From Terriglobia bacterium (GTDB taxonomy: Bacteria; Acidobacteriota; Terriglobia; JAJPHL01; JAPKYU01), in the NCBI GenBank assembly GCA_965206645.1, contig CBDBKE010000001.1, positions 64,001-128,000 of the forward strand: DNA of 64,000 nt, written 5' to 3'. Every line of letters begins with the position of its first letter. Position 1 is the stretch's first letter. Under the pieces are notes generated by a model. It made no database searches, was not told the DNA's origin, and saw nothing but the letters and a program-made list of their open reading frames with translations. Made by a program: the position numbers and the translations under genes. Below are positions 273 through 8,086 of this stretch, one piece after another.

Positions 273-2012
273 CTATCCGTAGACGCGCTCGCCGGGCGCC
301 CAGCGGGTGATGGTGACCGGCAGATGCTCCACGCGCGCTGAACCGTCCGCATTTCGAAACACCAGCGAGTGCACCAGGTACTTCTCGTTATCCCGAGCCG
401 GGAAGTCGGTGCGCTGGTGCGCTCCGCGGGATTCCTTCCGGTTCAAAGCGCTCTCGACGATCGCTTCGGCCACGTCCAGCATGAAGCCAAGCTCGAGCGC
501 AGTCGTCAACTCGGTGTTGAAGGTGCGGCTGCGGTCGTCGAGGTTGATATCCAGAAACCGCTCCTGCAACGTCCGCAGAGTTTGCGCGGCAGCGCTCAGC
601 TCCGTCCCCGTCCGGTAAATGCCGGCGCTGCTCTCCGTGGTCTGCTGCATCTCCTCCCGGATGGTGGCGATGCGCTCCCGGCCTCCCGTCTTGCGCAGAA
701 ACTGCTCTTCCAGTCGGCGCTGCTCCTCAGCCGCCTGCGCCAGAACGTGCGCACCGGGCCCGCGCTGCTCGGAGGCGAACACAGCCGCCGCCTGTCCTGC
801 TCGCGCCCCGAAGACCAGCAGTTCCGGCAGGGAATTGGAACCCAGGCGGTTGGCCCCGTTGATGCTGACACAAGCGACCTCGCCAGCGGCATACAGTCCC
901 GCCAGCGGCGTTGCGCCGTTCATGTCGGTGTGCACCCCGCCCATCATGTAGTGCACCACGGGGCGCACCGGGATCAGCTCCCGGACCGGGTCAATGTTCT
1001 GGTATTTCTGGCACAGCTCGCGCACGAACGGCAGCTTGGCGTTGATGAGCTTCTCTCCCAGATGCCGCAGGTCTAGGTGGACGACCGGGCCGTAGGGAGT
1101 GTCAATGGTGCGGCCTTTCTGTTGCTCTTTGACGAAGGCCTGCGACAGCCGGTCGCGGGGTCCCAGTTCCATGGAGCGCAGCACCGGCTTGGGCTGCGGC
1201 GTTCCCAGGTTGTAGTCCTGCAGGTAGCGATAACCATCCTTGTTCAGCATGTAGCCGCCCTCGGCGCGGGAGGCTTCGGTGATCAGGATGCCCGTGAAGG
1301 GCAAGCCGGTCGGATGGTACTGAACGAATTCCATGTCCTTCAGCGGAGCACCGGCCCGGTAGGCCAGCGCCATGCCGTCGCCGTTCTTGATGCTGCCGTT
1401 GGTGGTGAACGGATAGACCCGGCCACAGCCTCCCGTGCACAGGATCACGGCCTTGGCGGTGATGGCCTGCACCTGTCCCGTCATCAGCTCCAGTGCGACC
1501 ACCCCCTGCACTCGGCCGTCGTCGACCAGCAGCTTGGTGGCAAACCACTCGTCGTAGCGGATCAGGGTGCTGTATTTCAGGCAGGTCTGAAACAGAGTGT
1601 GCAACATGTGGAAGCCGGTCTTGTCGGCGGCAAACCAGGTGCGCATCTTTTTCATTCCGCCAAACGCCCGCACGGCAATATGCCCGTCCGGGTCCCGGCT
1701 CCAGGGACAGCCCCAGTGCTCCATCCGAAGCAGCTCTTCGGGAGCTTCCTTGATGAAGGCCTCCACGGCATCCTGGTCGCACAGCCAGTCGCCCCCGGAG
1801 ATGGTGTCGTAAGCGTGCTCATCCAGGCTGTCGTTGGGCTTGACGACGGCTGCGGCGCCCCCCTCGGCGGAGACGGTGTGGCTCCGCATGGGGTAAACCT
1901 TGGAGACGACCGCGATGCTGAGTCGGGGATTGACTTCCGCCACGGCAATGGCCGCGCGCAGACCCGCGCCTCCACCCCCAACAATCAGAACGTCGTGAGA
2001 TGAACTTTCCAT
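273..2012 (-). CDS. frdA: Fumarate reductase / succinate dehydrogenase flavoprotein subunit
   Basis: GGGGAG FAD-binding loop, [10 protein letters not shown] (covalent-FAD His), [45 protein letters not shown]; resembles FrdA-type sequences. Confidence 0.92.
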
Positions 2013-2030
2013 GCCGGTTGAACGTTCGAG

Positions 2031-2060
2031 AATTTACGCGGTGGATGGTGAGGTTGTCAA
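2031..2060 (-). promoter_or_regulatory. Sigma70-like promoter for frdA
   Basis: Minus strand TTGACA (2060-2055), 18-nt spacer, TAAATT (2036-2031), ending 18 nt before the ATG. Confidence 0.5.
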
Positions 2061-2109
2061 TGTGCAAAACCGGTCGGAGCGGCCAGGGGTCCCAGAGGGC
2101 AGATCCACT

Positions 2110-2583
2110 CTACACGACGGCCCGCTCCTGCACAGCGTCGCCGACCCGAATTTCACCCTGGGTGAGAATCTGCGCCCGCAGGCCGCCCCGGTGGATCAGG
2201 CCGCGCAGGACTCCGGGCCGGGTGAGCTTTTCTACATGGGAACAGGGTTCGCACAGCCGAATGCCGCGCAGCGTTACTTCGCCGACCTGAAACTCCTGGC
2301 CCGCTAGGTGATTCAGAGGGACCTGGCGGGTGACGATATTGCGGCGGGACTGGCCCGCATCCAGCTCCACTCCTGATTCGTGTTTCAAAGCTTCAATGGT
2401 TTCGATCTCGATCAGCGTCACCTCGCTATCCGGACGGGGCTTGTCGGAGTAGGTCCCAACTCCGTGGAAGTAGCGGTCACCCTCCAGCCCGCGACCGGGC
2501 ACGGCACGCGCCTGGGGAACCGAGCGCATGGACGTGCTGGCCTCTGGGGCGATGTGCAGGGAAACTACCACGCCTTTCCACAT
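2110..2583 (-). CDS. MOSC domain-containing protein
   Basis: GLEGDRY, RRNIVT, F.VGEV.L, LCEPC..., RGGLRAQIL..G.I.VGD; likely start ATG at 2583 with AAGGAG RBS. Confidence 0.88.
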   Translation of the reverse strand: MWKGVVVSLHIAPEASTSMRSVPQARAVPGRGLEGDRYFHGVGTYSDKPRPDSEVTLIEIETIEALKHESGVELDAGQSRRNIVTRQVPLNHLAGQEFQVGEVTLRGIRLCEPCSHVEKLTRPGVLRGLIHRGGLRAQILTQGEIRVGDAVQERAVV

Positions 2584-2627
2584 TTCTGTCAGGCTCCTTT
2601 CCTGGCTTAGGGGCATGGCGGAAGCTG

Positions 2628-2735
2628 CAGCCTTGGGCGATCCTGCCCTCGGAGGGCGGGTGCCCAATGCTGGCCTCTACTCGCAAACCTGTTGTACCGG
2701 GCTGCAGTGGATCGGCCGCTCCACTGCCAGCGCCG
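2628..2735. repeat. Two GC-rich hairpins between the Cys peptide ORF and the MOSC gene
   Basis: 2628-2672: cagc-ttgggc-cctgccctc / gagggcggg-gcccaa-gctg nested stem. 2697-2735: gcagtgga / tccactgc stem with ccgg flanks. Confidence 0.55.
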
Positions 2736-2762
2736 GGTTTGCCCGTACGAGATCACGACTCG

Positions 2763-2813
2763 TTAGCAGCAATCGTCACACGGACACGGTACGGAGCATG
2801 GACACTGGCACAT
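2763..2813 (-). CDS. Putative 16-aa cysteine-rich peptide MCQCPCSVPCPCDDCC (micro-metallothionein-like)
   Basis: AAGGAGG RBS 6 nt before ATG (2813); 7 of 16 residues are Cys in CxCxC, CxC and CC patterns; TAA at 2765-2763; lies just behind the arsR-family gene and overlaps its tail. Confidence 0.68.
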   Translation of the reverse strand: MCQCPCSVPCPCDDCC

Positions 2814-3228
2814 GGCTGGCCTCCTTTCCCGGCGTGTTCGCACGCCGTTTTCTAGGTTGAACTCCCACCACGCATTTGCCACTCTGACGCAGCTTCAGCC
2901 GCGCCTCCAGCCGCTTCAGATCGGTCTGGACGTCGTGGCAGCAGCACACCGTCTCCAGGCAACAACGGATCTGCTCAAAGAAGGGATGCTTAGCATCCTT
3001 CAGTCGCACATAGACCCAGCGCCCTTCGCGTCGCTCTTCGACCAAGTCGGCGGTTTTCATCAGCTTCAGGTGGCGACTGACGTTGGGTTGCGAAACCTGG
3101 AGCGCGTCTACCAACTCGCAGACGCACAGCCCCCCTTCTACCGCGGTCAGGCAACAGGTCAGGCGCAGGCGGAGCGGATCGCCGAGGGCCGCGAAGAGCT
3201 CCTGAGGATGGGCCAGATTCACATTCAT
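2776..3228 (-). CDS. ArsR/SmtB family metalloregulatory repressor
   Basis: FAALGDPLRLRL, LCVCEL alpha-3 metal motif, SQPNVSRHL HTH, ERREGRWVY; extra C-terminal CC..CCC. Confidence 0.92.
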   Translation of the reverse strand: MNVNLAHPQELFAALGDPLRLRLTCCLTAVEGGLCVCELVDALQVSQPNVSRHLKLMKTADLVEERREGRWVYVRLKDAKHPFFEQIRCCLETVCCCHDVQTDLKRLEARLKLRQSGKCVVGVQPRKRRANTPGKEASHVPVSMLRTVSV

Positions 3229-3248
3229 ATATTCACGTCTTTGAATAT
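3229..3248. promoter_or_regulatory. Putative ArsR operator (inverted repeat)
   Basis: ATATTCA-cgtctt-TGAATAT palindrome directly abutting the arsR start codon; TTGACA on the minus strand at 3266-3261. Confidence 0.65.
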
Positions 3249-3532
3249 GTTGCGCCCTTGTGTCAAGCCTTTTCTGCGACGCCTCAACAACCCACCGGGA
3301 GCTAAGCGCGGCACGTGCCGCCCGCCCGCCGGTCGTGGGGGGTGGGTCGTTGGGCGTCGGTCGCTGTGGGGGCGCGGCCGTTCCTGGCCATGCGACCCAC
3401 CGGAAACGTTCGGAAAAGGATTTTCAGCGGCCTGCTGGGATGAGACGGTATGCCACCGTTTGGGGCGGGAACCGCTTGCAAACGGCGATATAATAGAAGT
3501 CGGGGTCCGCGACGGTCCCGCAGAAGGAGGGT

Positions 3533-4027
3533 GTGCCTGTGTCTGGTCGAATCCCGAAAGAGCGTTGGAAAATTGGCGCAGGAATCCTGTTGATTCTGGC
3601 CACGATTACCTGGCTGGCAGTCAGCGGCATTCAGGAAAGCAAGACCTACTATGTCACCGTCCCGGAGCTGCAGGCCATGGGCGATGAGGCATACGGCAAG
3701 CGGCTGCGCGTAGGCGGCGATGTCACCGTCGGTTCCATTCACCGGGACCACGACCGCGTCTCGTTCACCCTGGAGCAAGAGAGCAACACGCTTCCAGTCC
3801 TGTATGTAGGGACCGAGCCACTGCCGGACACCTTCCGCGACCGCGCGCAGGCGCTGGCCGACGGCTCCTACGGGCCCGACGGGGTTTTCGTAGCCAAGCG
3901 GATTCAGGCCAAGTGCGCCTCCAAGTATGAGGCCCAGAAGCCGAGTGCAACGCATGAGGCGCAAGAACCGGGTGAGACCGGCGTTGTGCCGGAGGCCCCA
4001 GCCCAGCAAGGTTCGAGGACGTACTAA
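3533..4027 (+). CDS. ccmE: Cytochrome c maturation heme chaperone CcmE (CxxxY type)
   Basis: N-terminal TM, YYVTV.EL, RLRVGG.V, LPDTFRD, AKCASKY motif; first gene of the ccm operon. Confidence 0.9.
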   Translation: MPVSGRIPKERWKIGAGILLILATITWLAVSGIQESKTYYVTVPELQAMGDEAYGKRLRVGGDVTVGSIHRDHDRVSFTLEQESNTLPVLYVGTEPLPDTFRDRAQALADGSYGPDGVFVAKRIQAKCASKYEAQKPSATHEAQEPGETGVVPEAPAQQGSRTY

Positions 4028-4030
4028 TCC

Positions 4031-6097
4031 ATGGAGCACATAGGGGCATTCGCCCTAGTTCTGGCGTTCGGGTTGTGTCTGTACGCCCTGGTGGTGGCGC
4101 TGGCCGGGCACTGGTCGCATCGGCCGACGCTGGTGGCCAGCGCGGGGCGCTCCGTCACCGCCCTGTGGGTGTCCTTGACGGTGGCCATCGGCGCACTGGT
4201 GGTGTTGTTTCAGCAGGACAGTTTCCACGTCGCGAACGTGGCCGCGCACAGCAACATCACGATGCCGGCCATCTACAAGCTCAGCGCGCTATGGTCGGGC
4301 CAGGAAGGCTCGCTGCTGTTCTGGAGCTGGCTGCTGGCCTGCTACAGCGTGATTGCAGTCCGGCTGAACCGGCGGCATCTGCCCGAGCTGCAACCCTACG
4401 TCATTGCCACCTTGATGGTGGTGCAAGGCTTCTTCCTGGTGCTGAACTTGTTTGTCGTCCACCCGTTCACCCTGTTGGGGTTCGAGACTTCCGAGGGCTT
4501 CGCTCGGTTCGTCCCCCCTGACGGCAGCGGGATGAACCCACTGCTGCAGTACTGGATGATGGCCATCCACCCGCCGATGCTTTACCTGGGCTACATCGGC
4601 TTCTCGGTGCCCTTCGCCTTCGCCATGGCCGCCCTGATCACCCGCGCTCCCGGCGAGGGTTGGATCCGGGCCACCCGCAACTGGACCATGATCGCCTGGC
4701 TGTTCCAGACGGTTGGCGTCTTGCTCGGCGCACGCTGGGCCTACGCCGTGCTGGGCTGGGGCGGGTACTGGGGGTGGGACCCGGTGGAGAACGCCTCGCT
4801 ACTGCCCTGGCTGACTGGCACCGCCTTCCTGCACTCGGTCATGATGCAGGAAAAGAAAGGAATGATGAAGGTGTGGAACATGGTTCTGGTGTTCACCACT
4901 TTCTTCTTGTGCATCTTCGGCACCTTCTTGACGCGTAGCGGCATTGTCAGCTCGGTCCACACTTTTGCCCTGTCGCCCATCGGCCCCTACTTTGTTGCTT
5001 TCCTGCTGGCCGGCATCGCCTTCTCGGTCGTGCTGATCCTGATCCGGCGGGGACTACGACTCCGCCCATGGCCACATTTCCTGCCGCATGACTACTTGAC
5101 GAGCGAGAATCAGCTCGAATCAGTGGTCTCCCGTGAGTCCAGTTTCCTGTTCAACAACCTGATTTTGCTCGCTGCCTGCTTTGCGGTGCTGTGGGGCACC
5201 CTGTTTCCGGTGATCACCGAATACATTCAGGGTACCAAGATCACCGTGGGCCCGCCGTTTTTCAACAAAGTAAACATCCCCATAGGACTGTTTCTCCTGT
5301 TCCTGACCGGCGTGGGGCCGCTGATCGCCTGGCGGCGCAGTTCCCTCAAGAGCCTGGAGAAGAGCCTGTTTCCACCGGCGTTGTTTGGTGTGGCGTTCGG
5401 GGCTTTGACCTTTTGGCTCGGCGCCCGCGGTTTCTACCCGCTGGTCTCGTTCACCCTGTGTGGCTTTGTGGCCGCCACGGTGATCTCGGAATTCTACCGG
5501 GGGGCGTGGGCCATCCGGCGCAAGACAGCCGTGTCGCTGCCCAGAGCGGCCGTGCATCTCACCCTGCGGAACACGCGCCGCTACGGCGGCTACATCGTCC
5601 ACCTGGGAATCGTGTTCGTCTTCATTGGCTTCACGGGCGCTGCCTTTAACGTCGAGAAGCAGGGCCAGTTGAAGCCCGGCGAGCCGCTGGTGGTCCACAA
5701 TTTCACGCTCGCACTGGAACGCATCGAGATGGGTGAGACCGACAACTATGCTTTCCAGCGAGCTTACGTCCGCACCGAAAAGAACGGTCGGCCCATCGCC
5801 ACCATGATGCCGGAAAAGCGCATGTACAAGACCAGCCAGCAGCCGACCAGTGAGGTGGCTATCCGCTCGCGCATGAGCGAGGACCTGTACGTAGTGCTGG
5901 CCGAGGCCGGCGCCGACGGCGGCGCCTTCCTCCAGGTGTTCCTGAACCCCCTGGTGAACTGGATCTGGCTGGGAGGGTTTGTGATGGCGCTGGGAACCGG
6001 CATTGCCTTGGTGCCCAATCGCCCGCCGCCGCCGGCGCGCGTGGCCCTCAAGGTCACGTCTCAAAGGACCAAACAAAAGGATGAAGTCCTGGCATAA
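4031..6097 (+). CDS. ccmF: Heme lyase CcmF/NrfE family
   Basis: W.GQEGSLL, IHPP.LY.GY, WGGYWGWDPVENASLLPWL (WWD domain), FLTRSG..SSVH. Confidence 0.96.
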   Translation: MEHIGAFALVLAFGLCLYALVVALAGHWSHRPTLVASAGRSVTALWVSLTVAIGALVVLFQQDSFHVANVAAHSNITMPAIYKLSALWSGQEGSLLFWSWLLACYSVIAVRLNRRHLPELQPYVIATLMVVQGFFLVLNLFVVHPFTLLGFETSEGFARFVPPDGSGMNPLLQYWMMAIHPPMLYLGYIGFSVPFAFAMAALITRAPGEGWIRATRNWTMIAWLFQTVGVLLGARWAYAVLGWGGYWGWDPVENASLLPWLTGTAFLHSVMMQEKKGMMKVWNMVLVFTTFFLCIFGTFLTRSGIVSSVHTFALSPIGPYFVAFLLAGIAFSVVLILIRRGLRLRPWPHFLPHDYLTSENQLESVVSRESSFLFNNLILLAACFAVLWGTLFPVITEYIQGTKITVGPPFFNKVNIPIGLFLLFLTGVGPLIAWRRSSLKSLEKSLFPPALFGVAFGALTFWLGARGFYPLVSFTLCGFVAATVISEFYRGAWAIRRKTAVSLPRAAVHLTLRNTRRYGGYIVHLGIVFVFIGFTGAAFNVEKQGQLKPGEPLVVHNFTLALERIEMGETDNYAFQRAYVRTEKNGRPIATMMPEKRMYKTSQQPTSEVAIRSRMSEDLYVVLAEAGADGGAFLQVFLNPLVNWIWLGGFVMALGTGIALVPNRPPPPARVALKVTSQRTKQKDEVLA

Positions 6098-6614
6098 GAT
6101 CGCCGCCGTGAGCCTGGCCGTAGTAGGCCTGGTGATCGCGGGTGCCCTCAGTCCACGCCGCGCCAGCTCTTCGGAGGAGGCGTTCAACAGCCTCTCGGAC
6201 CGGCTACTGTGCCAGTGCGGGTGCGGGCAGCACCTGCAGGGATGCAATATGCATCCCTGTGGCACCGCCTACCCCATGCGGGATCAGGTCCGCGCCTCGA
6301 TCGCCGCGGGGAAGAGCGAAGAAGGGATCGTCGAGGAGTTCGTCCAGCAGATGGGCGCCGGCGTCCTGGCGACGCCGCCTGCCCGGGGCATCGGCCTGGT
6401 GGCCTGGATCATGCCTGTGGCCGCGCTGTTGTTGGGCCTGGCAGTGATTTTCCGGGTCGTGAAGCGCTGGCGGCCGCAGCCTGCGGCCGAACGTGCCGGC
6501 CCACCGGCCTCGAACGCGGCTCCCAGCGGTACCCCCGCCAGCGATACCCTCCCCAGCGGTACTCTCCAACGCTACACTGCCTCGATTGACGAAGAGCTGG
6601 AGCGCGAGGCATGA
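6081..6614 (+). CDS. ccmH: Cytochrome c-type biogenesis protein CcmH/NrfF family
   Basis: Signal peptide, LLCQCGC...C....C, MR.QV...I.AGKSEE.I...F, VLATPP..G..AW..P; ATG at 6081 overlaps the end of ccmF. Confidence 0.82.
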   Translation: MKSWHKIAAVSLAVVGLVIAGALSPRRASSSEEAFNSLSDRLLCQCGCGQHLQGCNMHPCGTAYPMRDQVRASIAAGKSEEGIVEEFVQQMGAGVLATPPARGIGLVAWIMPVAALLLGLAVIFRVVKRWRPQPAAERAGPPASNAAPSGTPASDTLPSGTLQRYTASIDEELEREA

Positions 6615-8086
6615 GCGTGGTCCTGGTCTGTGCTGCACTGGCCGGGTTCGTGCTCCTGTACACGCTGTGGGTTCCCCGGCAGGAAATCCACGTCCCCCAG
6701 CCGCCTACTCGGCTGGATCATCTGCAGGAGAAGAAGAAGGTCCTTTATGACAACCTGAAGGACCTGCACTTTGAGTACCGCACCGGCAAGTTCTCCGACG
6801 AAGATTACCAGCAGTTAAAAACCTCCCTGCAATACGAACTGGCACTGGTGATGAAGCAGATTGAGGAGTTGGAAACTCGTCGGGAGCCGGCAGGCAAGCG
6901 CAAGGCAGCCGACACGGCCGAGCCGGCAGTGGAGACGGCAAGCGGTGGTGAGGCCCCTCTTTGCCCTTCCTGCGGACATCCGAACCCGGCGAAGCACAAG
7001 CACTGCTCGGAGTGCGGCGCCCGCCTGCAGATGGTGGTGGTTTTGCTGCTGCTCGCTGGGGTGAGTATCGCCGCACTGCCCGCAGTTGCCGAGCAGGTGG
7101 CAGTGGAGGGAGTCGTGCGCAATGGCACCACGGGTAATCCGGCCACCGGCGCGCTAGTGGCGCTGATCCGCGCCGGCGAAAGTAAAGAGTCGCTGGAGCA
7201 GGTGATCAGCGACCGTGGGGGGCGCTTTCACTTTCAATCCGTCGAGGTGCCTGCGCCGCCAGCGATGTTGCTGGTGCAGGTTGAGCATGGCGGCGTGCGC
7301 TACACCGAACCTACAGTGGGCACTGCGCCCGTAGAGTTGGCAATTTATGAAGCCGGAGCGCCGGCTTCCGCCATTCGTGTGGCTGAGCGCGCGGTGATTT
7401 TGCACCCTACGAGGGGCAAGCTATTGGTGATCGAATCCTACCGCCTGTGGAATGGATCGGACCCGCCGGCCACCTATGCCCCGGCGGGCAACACGTTCCG
7501 GTTTTTTGTCCCGGAGGGGGGCAGCCGTAGCGTGCAGGTCAGCCTCCGAGGCGCGGCTGGTATGTCGATTCCGTTGGAGCCGCGGCCGTACGCCGCTCAG
7601 TCCGGCGTGCTGGCCGTTAGCCATCCGCTTAAGCCTGGCGAGAACCGAATCGGGGTCAACTACCACCTGGATTATCCTGGCTCGCTGAAGTTTGAGTCGC
7701 AGGCGATCGAGGAGGTAGAGCGCACGCTGCTGGCTGTCCCCGAAGGTGTCACTCTGGAAGGCGAAGGGGTGCGCTTCTTGAGTACCGAGCCGGAGACTGG
7801 ATTTCGAATCCACGACCTGGCGCGCAACGATCGCTGGACGGTGCGGCTGGCGGGCGAAGGGCGGCCAGCATTGGGTGCGACGGGTGAGGGGGGCGGCGCG
7901 GCCGAGAACGATTCCGACGTCGTTTCCCGGCTGGGCCCGGTCGGGGAGCAACGCGAGCTGCTGCTGGCGGTGGTGATGGCTGCGCTGGGGATGGGCTTCC
8001 TGCGTCTGTGGCGTCAGCAGAAGCCTGTTACCCTGCCCAGGCAGGTTGCCCGCGGCGGAGCCCCCTCCCGCAAGCGCCGGTCTTGA
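6611..8086 (+). CDS. ccm-associated membrane protein: CcmI-like N-terminus, zinc ribbon, and exported beta-sandwich domain with C-terminal TM
   Basis: LYDNLKDLHFEYRTGKFSDEDY helix pair, CPSCG..CSECG zinc ribbon, internal signal-like hydrophobic stretch, GVVRNGTTG carboxypeptidase-regulatory-like start. Confidence 0.65.
   Translation: MSVVLVCAALAGFVLLYTLWVPRQEIHVPQPPTRLDHLQEKKKVLYDNLKDLHFEYRTGKFSDEDYQQLKTSLQYELALVMKQIEELETRREPAGKRKAADTAEPAVETASGGEAPLCPSCGHPNPAKHKHCSECGARLQMVVVLLLLAGVSIAALPAVAEQVAVEGVVRNGTTGNPATGALVALIRAGESKESLEQVISDRGGRFHFQSVEVPAPPAMLLVQVEHGGVRYTEPTVGTAPVELAIYEAGAPASAIRVAERAVILHPTRGKLLVIESYRLWNGSDPPATYAPAGNTFRFFVPEGGSRSVQVSLRGAAGMSIPLEPRPYAAQSGVLAVSHPLKPGENRIGVNYHLDYPGSLKFESQAIEEVERTLLAVPEGVTLEGEGVRFLSTEPETGFRIHDLARNDRWTVRLAGEGRPALGATGEGGGAAENDSDVVSRLGPVGEQRELLLAVVMAALGMGFLRLWRQQKPVTLPRQVARGGAPSRKRRS

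Follow-up and report, generated by a model that had tools for sequence, protein, structure and literature searches.

A candidate metal-binding, cysteine-rich micro-peptide encoded behind a cysteine-rich ArsR-family repressor

The window analysed here is a stretch of 64,000 nucleotides (nt) of contig CBDBKE010000001.1 (positions 64,001 to 128,000) from a Terriglobia bacterium, and coordinates below refer to it unless another contig or locus is named. Its minus strand carries arsR, the gene of a cysteine-rich ArsR/SmtB-family repressor, followed by an open reading frame (ORF) of only 16 codons, here called the micro-ORF, whose product MCQCPCSVPCPCDDCC contains 7 Cys, 3 Pro and 2 Asp residues (Table 1). 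The micro-ORF begins with an ATG at 2813..2811 and ends with a TAA at 2765..2763, and the spacer between its Shine-Dalgarno (SD) sequence and the start codon reads ccagcc. The initial annotation of the window had proposed just this arrangement of a minus-strand SD and a 16-codon, seven-Cys ORF, and reading the sequence bears it out (GGAGG, 6 nt, ATG, TAA). We hold with high confidence that the micro-ORF is a real translated gene, overlooked because an ORF of this length is below what gene callers keep.

The micro-ORF is singular within its own 4.4-megabase (Mb) genome. Among the 99,985 ORFs of 6-45 codons that start there with ATG or GTG, 16 have at least four Cys and a Cys content of at least 30%, and the one at 2763..2813 is the only ORF that has an SD as well. 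Its overlap of 38 nt with the 3' end of arsR (2813..2776), in a different frame, was also described in the initial annotation; it is true of the window but lineage-specific, arsR mostly stopping ~20-25 nt before the micro-ORF in the other loci. A programmed frameshift or a sequencing error that fuses a Cys-rich tail to ArsR can be ruled out, since most loci have an arsR stop codon at this distance 5' of a separate SD and ATG. A longer micro-ORF starting from an upstream in-frame GTG (MRTRRERRPAM...) was rejected as well: the GTG lacks an SD and is not conserved.

For comparison between species we fetched 111 loci of this ArsR clade, 5 from genomes related to that of the window, 26 from species-representative genomes and 80 from metagenome contigs. 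After dropping duplicates and loci with <120 nt downstream, 78 orthologous loci were left, and 79 loci with other ArsR paralogues formed the control set. All carriers are metagenome-assembled genomes (MAGs) or metagenome contigs and are interrelated, and the counts are not those of independent samples; the species-representative records include no orthologue from a cultured strain. A strict filter (SD; ATG, GTG or TTG start; 8-30 codons; at least 3 Cys and at least 25% Cys; position -90 to +400 nt from the arsR stop) finds a micro-ORF in 65 of the 78 orthologous loci and in 0 of the 79 paralogue loci. Inspection by eye adds three genuine micro-ORFs that the filter missed because of SD spelling or Cys fraction (loci L112, L162 and L163), bringing the count to 68/78. 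The carriers are labelled Acidobacteriota (Terriglobia, 'Acidiferrales'), Gemmatimonadota and 'Candidatus Xenobia', with one MAG labelled Bacillota. Typical peptides of Acidobacteriota are MSPCCPGPCCPGDGCC, which is the commonest natural form, MCPCCPYCPDDDCC and MAPCCPGPCCPDDGCC; those of Gemmatimonadota include MCDCPWCTDGCC, MSDCPWCSGSCC and MNVLDCPCCGSGCC. A back-translated CCPxxPCCP pattern, run against 401 genomes of the phylum, matches in 11, and only for one of them (G024) does the match correspond to a micro-ORF beside arsR; the other matches were discarded as micro-genes, being chance matches in other frames or long ORFs.

Among the 65 micro-ORFs are 60 different DNA versions, which encode 47 different peptides, 11-18 residues long and with 4-7 Cys each. 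When ORFs of the same length are compared in the frame of the micro-ORF, 750 of 1130 codon pairs that differ by a single base (0.66) are synonymous, as against 271/1220 (0.22) and 350/1219 (0.29) in the other two frames. Among ORFs of the 51-nt class, variation is highest at the third codon position (0.227, compared with 0.093 at the first and 0.089 at the second). Both Cys codons are in use (TGC 208, TGT 102), as are all three stop codons (27/20/18). Of the ORFs, 59 start with ATG and 6 with GTG, and any differences in length amount to whole codons. In 60 of the 65 a GGAGG is present no more than 20 nt upstream, and in 57 it is spaced 5-8 nt from the start. Between Acidobacteriota and Gemmatimonadota the nucleotide sequences are widely different while the Cys pattern is kept, and Pro, Asp and Gly positions and a terminal CC are conserved besides Cys. 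By these signatures the micro-ORF is under selection at the level of the peptide, and an element that acts only as RNA or only as DNA is unlikely because the synonymous bias is specific to one frame. The initial annotation had suggested translating the DNA downstream of homologous arsR genes as a check, and the outcome is a conserved Cys-rich micro-ORF with a ribosome-binding site and synonymous variation.

Seven of the 10 orthologous loci that remain have a decayed or absent micro-ORF, with remnants such as LCDCQRSTDGGDG that lack a start codon. Another, L146, has no micro-ORF in the 135 nt available, although its ArsR is intact and Cys-rich. In L172 a deletion joins arsR, after ...DLNRLRA, to the last micro-ORF codons (GSGCC, stop), and so takes out the C-terminal helix of ArsR and most of the peptide; it is either a natural deletion or an assembly artefact. 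The locus L055 has a 37-codon form in place of the short micro-ORF, and its ArsR is a distant clade member with 54% identity and without the CCC motif. This ORF (L055:2917-3027, plus strand) has its own SD, a signal-peptide-like N-terminus (MRKKVLLMATALLVSTQTLLA...) and a C-terminal APCCPGCGLCG, and it is accompanied by the same hairpin as that described below, with the loop CTGCAG. The 37-aa (amino acid) form is an unnamed singleton in a collection of 15 billion proteins, and from its sequence it may be an exported version of the peptide.

Metatranscriptome contigs from four runs of two studies cover 2594..3216, a span that takes in arsR, the micro-ORF and both hairpins 3' of it. They stop at 2594-2602, past hairpin 2 and before the start of the next gene, and no contig of the four runs lies over 2000-2340 or 3254-3481; the ccmE side is covered separately. 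Contigs of this kind attest presence only, not transcript ends, strand or translation. A 626-nt contig from a ~91%-identical relative spans 2602..3216 and, by our own reading of 11 loose letters, has its end one base within the arsR ATG, consistent with a leaderless transcript. None of the 40 differences listed for this relative falls in 2763-2813, a weak observation, as 20 more differences lie outside the list.

At the 5' end of arsR, orthologues share an upstream layout of TTGACA, ~12 nt, and an AT-rich inverted repeat running into the arsR ATG; in 43 of the 58 orthologous loci compared, the first base of TTGAC is 35-38 nt away from the ATG, and an SD-like motif before the arsR start is found in 0 of the 58. 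The arsR messenger RNA is therefore probably leaderless, with the operator placed, as the sequence suggests, over the -10/+1 region. A scan for consensus promoters and terminators reported no promoter at arsR because the -10 element is weak in this genome. The palindromic operator that the initial annotation placed at the start of arsR is present (3248..3229, touching the ATG), and this 7-6-7 palindrome covers the predicted -10/+1 region. Related AT-rich inverted repeats occupy the same place in orthologues (32/77 by a strict pattern, the rest by eye). Such a layout is that of a repressor which would regulate itself through an inverted-repeat operator at its own promoter. The 4.4-Mb genome holds 1 perfect copy of the predicted operator, 0 sites with a single mismatch and 15 sites with two. 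As the palindrome has no second copy, its predicted regulon consists of the unit alone. Two adjacent operator-like near-copies (ATATTAACCGC[A/G]GAATAT) lie 14 nt apart at C2:203233-203264 of the same genome, each with two mismatches to the arsR operator and a 4-nt spacer. Database homologues with the N-terminus MHILEYM, MHICEYM or IHIFEYM seem to have a miscalled start codon, their first residues being a translation of the operator.

The surroundings of the unit are variable. A MOSC-domain gene follows the module only in loci L001-L003, on the same strand and 180 nt after the micro-ORF. No pump or reductase gene occurs among the neighbours in the window, in agreement with the initial annotation, which had noted the lack of an adjacent efflux pump or reductase; these neighbours are the MOSC gene, an SdhA/FrdA-type flavoprotein gene and a cytochrome c maturation (Ccm) cluster. 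The latter occupies 3533-6614 of the plus strand and contains, by eye, CcmF-like (688-aa) and CcmH-like (203-aa) ORFs; 3' of it, at 6611-8086 on the same strand, lies a 491-aa ORF with a zinc-ribbon-like motif (CPSCGHPNPAKHKHCSECG) and a predicted membrane segment. In an all-against-all BLAST of long ORFs the largest cluster of neighbours other than arsR comes from 11 of 61 loci, and no neighbour is conserved. This comparison is noisy owing to shadow ORFs in high-GC DNA (the top three clusters are arsR and its shadows) and was used for that statement only. Confident calls of downstream genes required a G+C content at third codon positions (GC3) of at least 0.8 and a length of at least 180 aa, which dropped 22 of 50 rows; GC3-based calling is wrong for lower-GC loci, L001 included, hence the strict thresholds. 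The confident downstream genes are convergent in 25 of 28 cases, and all nine convergent ORFs tested have unrelated Pfam domains, among them amidohydrolase, GH38 mannosidase, YdjM, peptide deformylase and pentapeptide repeats. On the same strand, ~1.3-2 kilobases (kb) downstream of arsR, 8 of 61 loci (all Gemmatimonadota, L122 among them) have an ORF that by eye is SufB-like, and a convergent peptide deformylase gene stands directly after the module in several Gemmatimonadota loci; both are probably lineage synteny.

By its sequence context, then, the unit is self-contained, with the micro-ORF as its last and only non-regulatory gene. We take the micro-ORF to be its only cargo because the operator is unique, no neighbour is conserved and the downstream genes are mostly convergent. 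The suggestion that the peptide may be the main target of the regulator fits this picture, the micro-ORF usually being the last gene.

Table 1. Features of the arsR-micro-ORF unit and its neighbours in the window
Feature	Position	Strand	Basis and remarks
-35-like TTGACA of the arsR promoter	3261..3266	minus	read in sequence; conserved in orthologues
Operator-like palindrome ATATTCA-N6-TGAATAT (N6 = aagacg)	3229..3248	.	abuts the arsR ATG
arsR, Cys-rich ArsR/SmtB-family repressor, 150 aa	2776..3228	minus	Pfam HTH_5; NCBIfam NF033788 (subfamily level); predicted leaderless
Shine-Dalgarno GGAGG, within GGGAAAGGAGG	2820..2824	minus	read in sequence; 6 nt 5' of the micro-ORF ATG
Micro-ORF, 16 codons + TAA	2763..2813	minus	encodes MCQCPCSVPCPCDDCC; conservation, coding signature, genome uniqueness, RNA-library contigs
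Hairpin 1	2741..2785	minus	-19.0 kcal/mol, z -3.04; spans the last 8 micro-ORF codons and the stop
Hairpin 2, conserved element	2697..2737	minus	-25.9 kcal/mol, z -3.3
MOSC-domain gene	2110..2583	minus	Pfam MOSC, E 1.7e-11; own SD; neighbour in this genus only
SdhA/FrdA-type flavoprotein	2012..273	minus	neighbour
CcmE	3533..4027	plus	Pfam; neighbour

The ArsR product is, on its sequence, of the winged helix-turn-helix ArsR/SmtB type. It matches Pfam PF01022 (HTH_5) with E 2.1e-12 and 47 bits against a cut-off of 22, and NCBIfam NF033788, a generic metalloregulator subfamily, with 90.8 bits against a cut-off of 55; no equivalog model is reached, and the BigR model comes third (51 bits against 155). 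The initial annotation had pointed out an LCVCEL site and extra CC/CCC motifs, and the protein indeed has 10 Cys in all, in LCVCEL and in TCC, RCC, VCCC and GKC. The ten are conserved across a tight clade with the signature ACCL..GLCVCEL..RCCxETVCCCxD..GKCVVG, in which LCVCEL is nearly invariant and most members are 125-130 aa long. In classical ArsR and CadC the position of LCVCEL is that of the As(III) and Cd sites. An AlphaFold2 model (mean predicted local distance difference test score, pLDDT, 80.5) shows a helix-turn-helix followed by a two-strand wing, and the best solved relatives are ArsR, SmtB and BigR. In this model the Cys-rich segment after helix 5 would be placed at the turn between helices 82-94 and 98-111; solved ArsR structures, whose matches end near residue 80-100, offer nothing equivalent to the Cys-rich C-terminal part. 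The last ~25 residues, whose codons run into the overlap with the micro-ORF, are a non-conserved tail modelled as disordered (pLDDT ~52 over residues 123-150). Many database ArsR entries of the clade end in ...GKGG or ...GKEA, which is the SD of the micro-ORF read as protein.

One residue of the repressor follows the fate of the micro-ORF. Cys95, the first Cys of VCCC at the turn between the two C-terminal helices of the model, is kept in 68 of 68 loci with a micro-ORF and lost (to Ser or Arg) in 7 of 7 loci with a decayed one. The ArsR tree resolves the joint loss into two independent events, one in L185 and the other in a clade of six that is well supported. As judged from these sequences, the link between Cys95 and the retention of the micro-ORF is suggestive, not strong.

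Two hairpins follow the micro-ORF, as the initial annotation had stated, and together reach -46.6 kcal/mol (z -4.06 against shuffles). The position of hairpin 1 corresponds, by eye, to a variable GC-rich hairpin found 5' of hairpin 2 in many loci. Hairpin 2 is built of an outer stem CCGG/CCGG, an inner stem CAGTGGA/TCCACTG and a loop G-CGGCCG-A with its core at 2718..2713, and has the consensus CCGGy-N3-GGAGTGGA-G-CGGCCG-A-TCCACTCC-N2-rCCGG. With an nhmmer profile of 25 copies, hairpin 2 is recovered at 40 of the 78 orthologous loci and at 0 of the 79 control loci; 39 of the 40 copies share the strand of arsR. A looser structural search for the palindromic core, which includes the Gemmatimonadota form GTGGAG-A-CGGCCG-CTCCAC, finds it in 48/78 loci against 2/79, with 5/69 in upstream control windows; a few of these 48 matches look spurious by eye. 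Its distance from the micro-ORF varies from 12 to 154 nt. In the alignment of the 40 copies 93% of cells pair and 7 of 11 pairs change on both sides, giving 29 doubly changed cells against 7.7 +/- 2.3 in shuffles, a value reached in 0 of 500. The loop core too stays self-complementary through paired changes (CGTACG in 4 loci, CTGCAG in 2, TGGCCA in 1), single-change variants being three with one occurrence each, and the central pair of this core cannot form inside one hairpin. In L112 the hairpin loop has the opposite orientation.

For the palindromic core we consider a kissing loop, a symmetric DNA site, or concerted evolution of a palindrome between convergent genes. The most ordinary role of hairpin 2 would be that of a terminator or a 3'-end stabiliser. 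A terminator scan reports no minus-strand site at either hairpin, and no U-tract follows hairpin 2 in the window; one does in L162, and both L004 and L162 have U-tract terminators right after the micro-ORF. The likeness to an intrinsic (bidirectional) terminator lies in the GC-rich hairpin between convergent genes, and that to a kissing loop in the 6-nt core that stays palindromic; self-complementary kissing loops are exemplified by the dimerisation initiation site of human immunodeficiency virus HIV-1. Unlike hairpin 2 in the window, however, an intrinsic terminator has a U-tract, and terminators normally do not conserve their loop sequence. An integron attC site or a repetitive extragenic palindromic (REP) repeat is ruled out, as no GTTRRRY boundary is seen by eye and the element has a single copy per genome. 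The hairpin 2 14-mer is unique in its own genome. Rfam, at a permissive threshold over 2000-3600, gives no match to the hairpins and only a meaningless match to a long non-coding RNA at E 0.91. Searched as a degenerate pattern in 61 relatives, the loop 14-mer yields near-chance numbers compared with a reversed control, and among 30 places fetched the long stem is found only at the module of G024.

Taken together, these data lead us to regard the unit, with somewhat better than even confidence, as an autoregulated sensor and a thiolate micro-peptide that would buffer a soft metal or metalloid. A sigma-70-type promoter overlapping the palindromic operator would drive one transcript with a leaderless arsR, the SD-driven micro-gene and a hairpin at the end. 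Without ligand an ArsR dimer would sit on the operator and keep both genes low. A thiophilic metal or metalloid would bind the Cys residues of ArsR (CVC in helix 3, CC/CCC after helix 5) and release the repressor; As(III)/Sb(III), Hg(II), Cd(II), Cu(I) and Zn(II) are all candidates, and we make no choice among them. The SD-bearing micro-ORF would then be translated far more often than the leaderless arsR, the 4-7 thiolates of the peptide would bind the same ion, and as its free concentration falls repression would return. We infer induction by metal and metal binding by the product, which is probably a tiny metal-binding peptide. In the broad sense of the word the composition is that of a metallothionein: Cys makes up 24-50% of the residues (our own arithmetic on the peptides of the 65 ORFs and L162), spaced as CC, CxC and CPxC with Pro turns and acidic residues, and metallothioneins show comparable spacing, turns and acidic residues.

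Several observations weigh against this interpretation. Trp or Phe occurs in the peptides of Gemmatimonadota (CPWC, CPFC), an unusual feature in a metallothionein, and a peptide of 16 residues may not persist long in cells. L146 shows that the sensor can occur on its own, and the joint loss of Cys95 and micro-ORF comprises only two independent events. The RNA-library contigs attest presence rather than transcription or translation, and DNA carry-over is possible. Finally, the 8 of 61 loci that lie 1-2 kb from sufB hint at other thiol or Fe-S biology.

A different role for the peptide, which we regard as unlikely though the foremost of the rivals, is that of a metallochaperone or co-sensor that takes up the ion or is oxidised and signals to the CC/CCC cluster of ArsR, much as CopZ delivers Cu(I) to CopY in Enterococcus. 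The joint retention of Cys95 and micro-ORF and their joint loss in two events would suit such a partnership, as would the unusual Cys-rich segment after helix 5 that has no counterpart in solved ArsR structures. The strong SD of the micro-ORF beside a leaderless arsR, however, predicts a large excess of peptide, which suits a buffer over a 1:1 partner, and L146 keeps a Cys-rich ArsR without any peptide. An extended form of this idea, to which we give a similarly low probability, is that ArsR reads the metal- or oxidant-loaded peptide through its CC/CCC motifs by a shared thiolate cluster or thiol exchange, the two acting as a two-part sensor-buffer, and that the 3' hairpin with its self-complementary loop core pairs two transcripts or recruits a factor and so sets peptide output; if true, peptide-mediated sensing and hairpin-set output would each be without precedent among ArsR/SmtB systems.

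Less probable again is that the unit answers non-metal thiol stress (oxidants, electrophiles, or persulfide and sulfite, as with ArsR proteins of the BigR/SqrR type), with the peptide as a sacrificial or redox-buffering thiol. BigR is the third-best NCBIfam match, though far below the cut-off, and the vicinal CC pairs and 10 Cys of ArsR could serve as redox switches. Against these stand the LCVCEL motif, at the place of the As(III)/Cd sites of classical ArsR and CadC, and the 61 loci, near which no sulfur-oxidation or detoxification gene is conserved.

We think it improbable that the peptide is turned by enzymes encoded elsewhere into a modified or secreted product, such as a metallophore or a ribosomally synthesised and post-translationally modified peptide (RiPP). 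Its very small size and richness in Cys and Pro would allow this, and the signal-peptide-like N-terminus before APCCPGCGLCG in L055 suggests extracytoplasmic action in that lineage. That form is a singleton among the 15 billion proteins, however, and no modifying enzyme, transporter or protease is conserved beside the unit, whose largest neighbour cluster is the 11 of 61 loci mentioned above. The whole peptide is 11-18 aa and has no leader/core organisation of the kind found in RiPP precursors.

A regulatory role of translation itself is very improbable. The micro-ORF would then be a cysteine-sensing leader or regulatory small ORF (sORF), in which the speed of the ribosome over Cys codons matters and the peptide has no role. 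The many Cys codons, the overlap of hairpin 1 with the 3' end of the ORF and the MOSC gene 180 nt later on the same strand in this genus would allow it, and the mechanism exists: mycobacterial polycysteine sORFs are described as the leaderless first ORF of an operon, where ribosome stalling controls downstream cysteine-metabolism genes (bioRxiv 10.1101/834739). They resemble the micro-ORF in being unannotated, very short, rich in Cys codons and beside an RNA structure. The micro-ORF, by contrast, comes last in its unit, at the 3' rather than the 5' end, with a strong SD. Of 28 confidently called next genes 25 are convergent, neighbours are unrelated, no cysteine-metabolism gene is linked, and U-tract terminators directly follow the ORF in L004 and L162. 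Pro, Asp, Gly and the terminal CC are conserved as well as Cys, and the spacing from ORF to hairpin ranges over 12 to 154 nt. Judged by its position, the micro-ORF is not a polycysteine leader-peptide attenuator. Least of all do we credit an untranslated RNA or DNA element, GC-rich and partly structured in hairpin 1, that happens to stay open in one frame, against which speak the frame-specific synonymous bias (0.66 against 0.22 and 0.29), the variable third codon position (0.227 against ~0.09 in the 51-nt class), the conserved SD and start codon with three different stop codons, and the divergence of nucleotide sequence between Acidobacteriota and Gemmatimonadota under a constant Cys pattern.

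The reading as a sensor with a buffering peptide has its nearest parallel in SmtB-SmtA, where metal relieves repression, smtA is transcribed divergently from smtB, and SmtA-type proteins are ~55 aa long with His ligands. The bacterial SmtA/BmtA metallothionein family is, we presume, Pfam PF02069. The unit described here shares with these systems an ArsR/SmtB repressor, a small Cys-rich product, a palindromic operator and the absence of a pump, and would follow the same logic with a peptide one third to one quarter the size of known bacterial metallothioneins. It differs in having both genes on one transcript, a sensor with 10 Cys and an extra C-terminal helix, and a peptide of 11-18 aa without His and without detectable homology, which places it outside the SmtA/BmtA family. 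A bacterial metallothionein controlled by an ArsR/SmtB protein is also described for the AzuR-NmtA pair of Anabaena (PMC8790569). SmtA-type proteins have a zinc-finger-like fold, given as GATA-type in PMC10612145.

In size and thiol density the micro-peptide resembles phytochelatins and the small fungal copper metallothioneins, which bind As, Cd or Cu as thiolate clusters. Phytochelatins are not gene-encoded but synthesised by an enzyme from glutathione; the fungal proteins (Neurospora, Agaricus) are longer (~25 aa), eukaryotic and without a paired ArsR sensor. The CopY-CopZ pair of Enterococcus hirae and ArsD, systems in which a metallochaperone passes metal to a repressor or a pump, offer another likeness, a small Cys-bearing partner co-expressed with a Cys-rich repressor, with metal hand-over possible. 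CopZ (~69 aa) and ArsD (~120 aa) are folded domains, however, and no pump accompanies the present unit. The commonest peptide form, MSPCCPGPCCPGDGCC, holds CC-PGP-CC, near the engineered As(III)-binding hairpin of the synthetic tetracysteine tag CCPGCC, which binds biarsenical dyes; this is suggestive only, the tag being an artificial motif inside proteins. A literature search, which had most subscription journals and supplements outside its reach, found no paper with the peptide motifs or with such an ArsR unit, the preprint on polycysteine sORFs being the one relevant item.

If the peptide binds metal, it would be, to our knowledge, the smallest gene-encoded metallothionein-like product, phytochelatin-sized but made on the ribosome. 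The sensor-plus-effector module of ~630 nt has spread among soil and groundwater bacteria belonging to at least three named phyla, and is both a candidate marker for metal(loid) stress in metagenomes and a component that biosensing or bioremediation could use as it stands. Hairpin 2, with its persistently palindromic loop, poses a separate puzzle of RNA or DNA biology. More broadly, the unit bears on the purpose of the extra cysteines in some ArsR proteins and on how many conserved micro-genes hide behind regulators.

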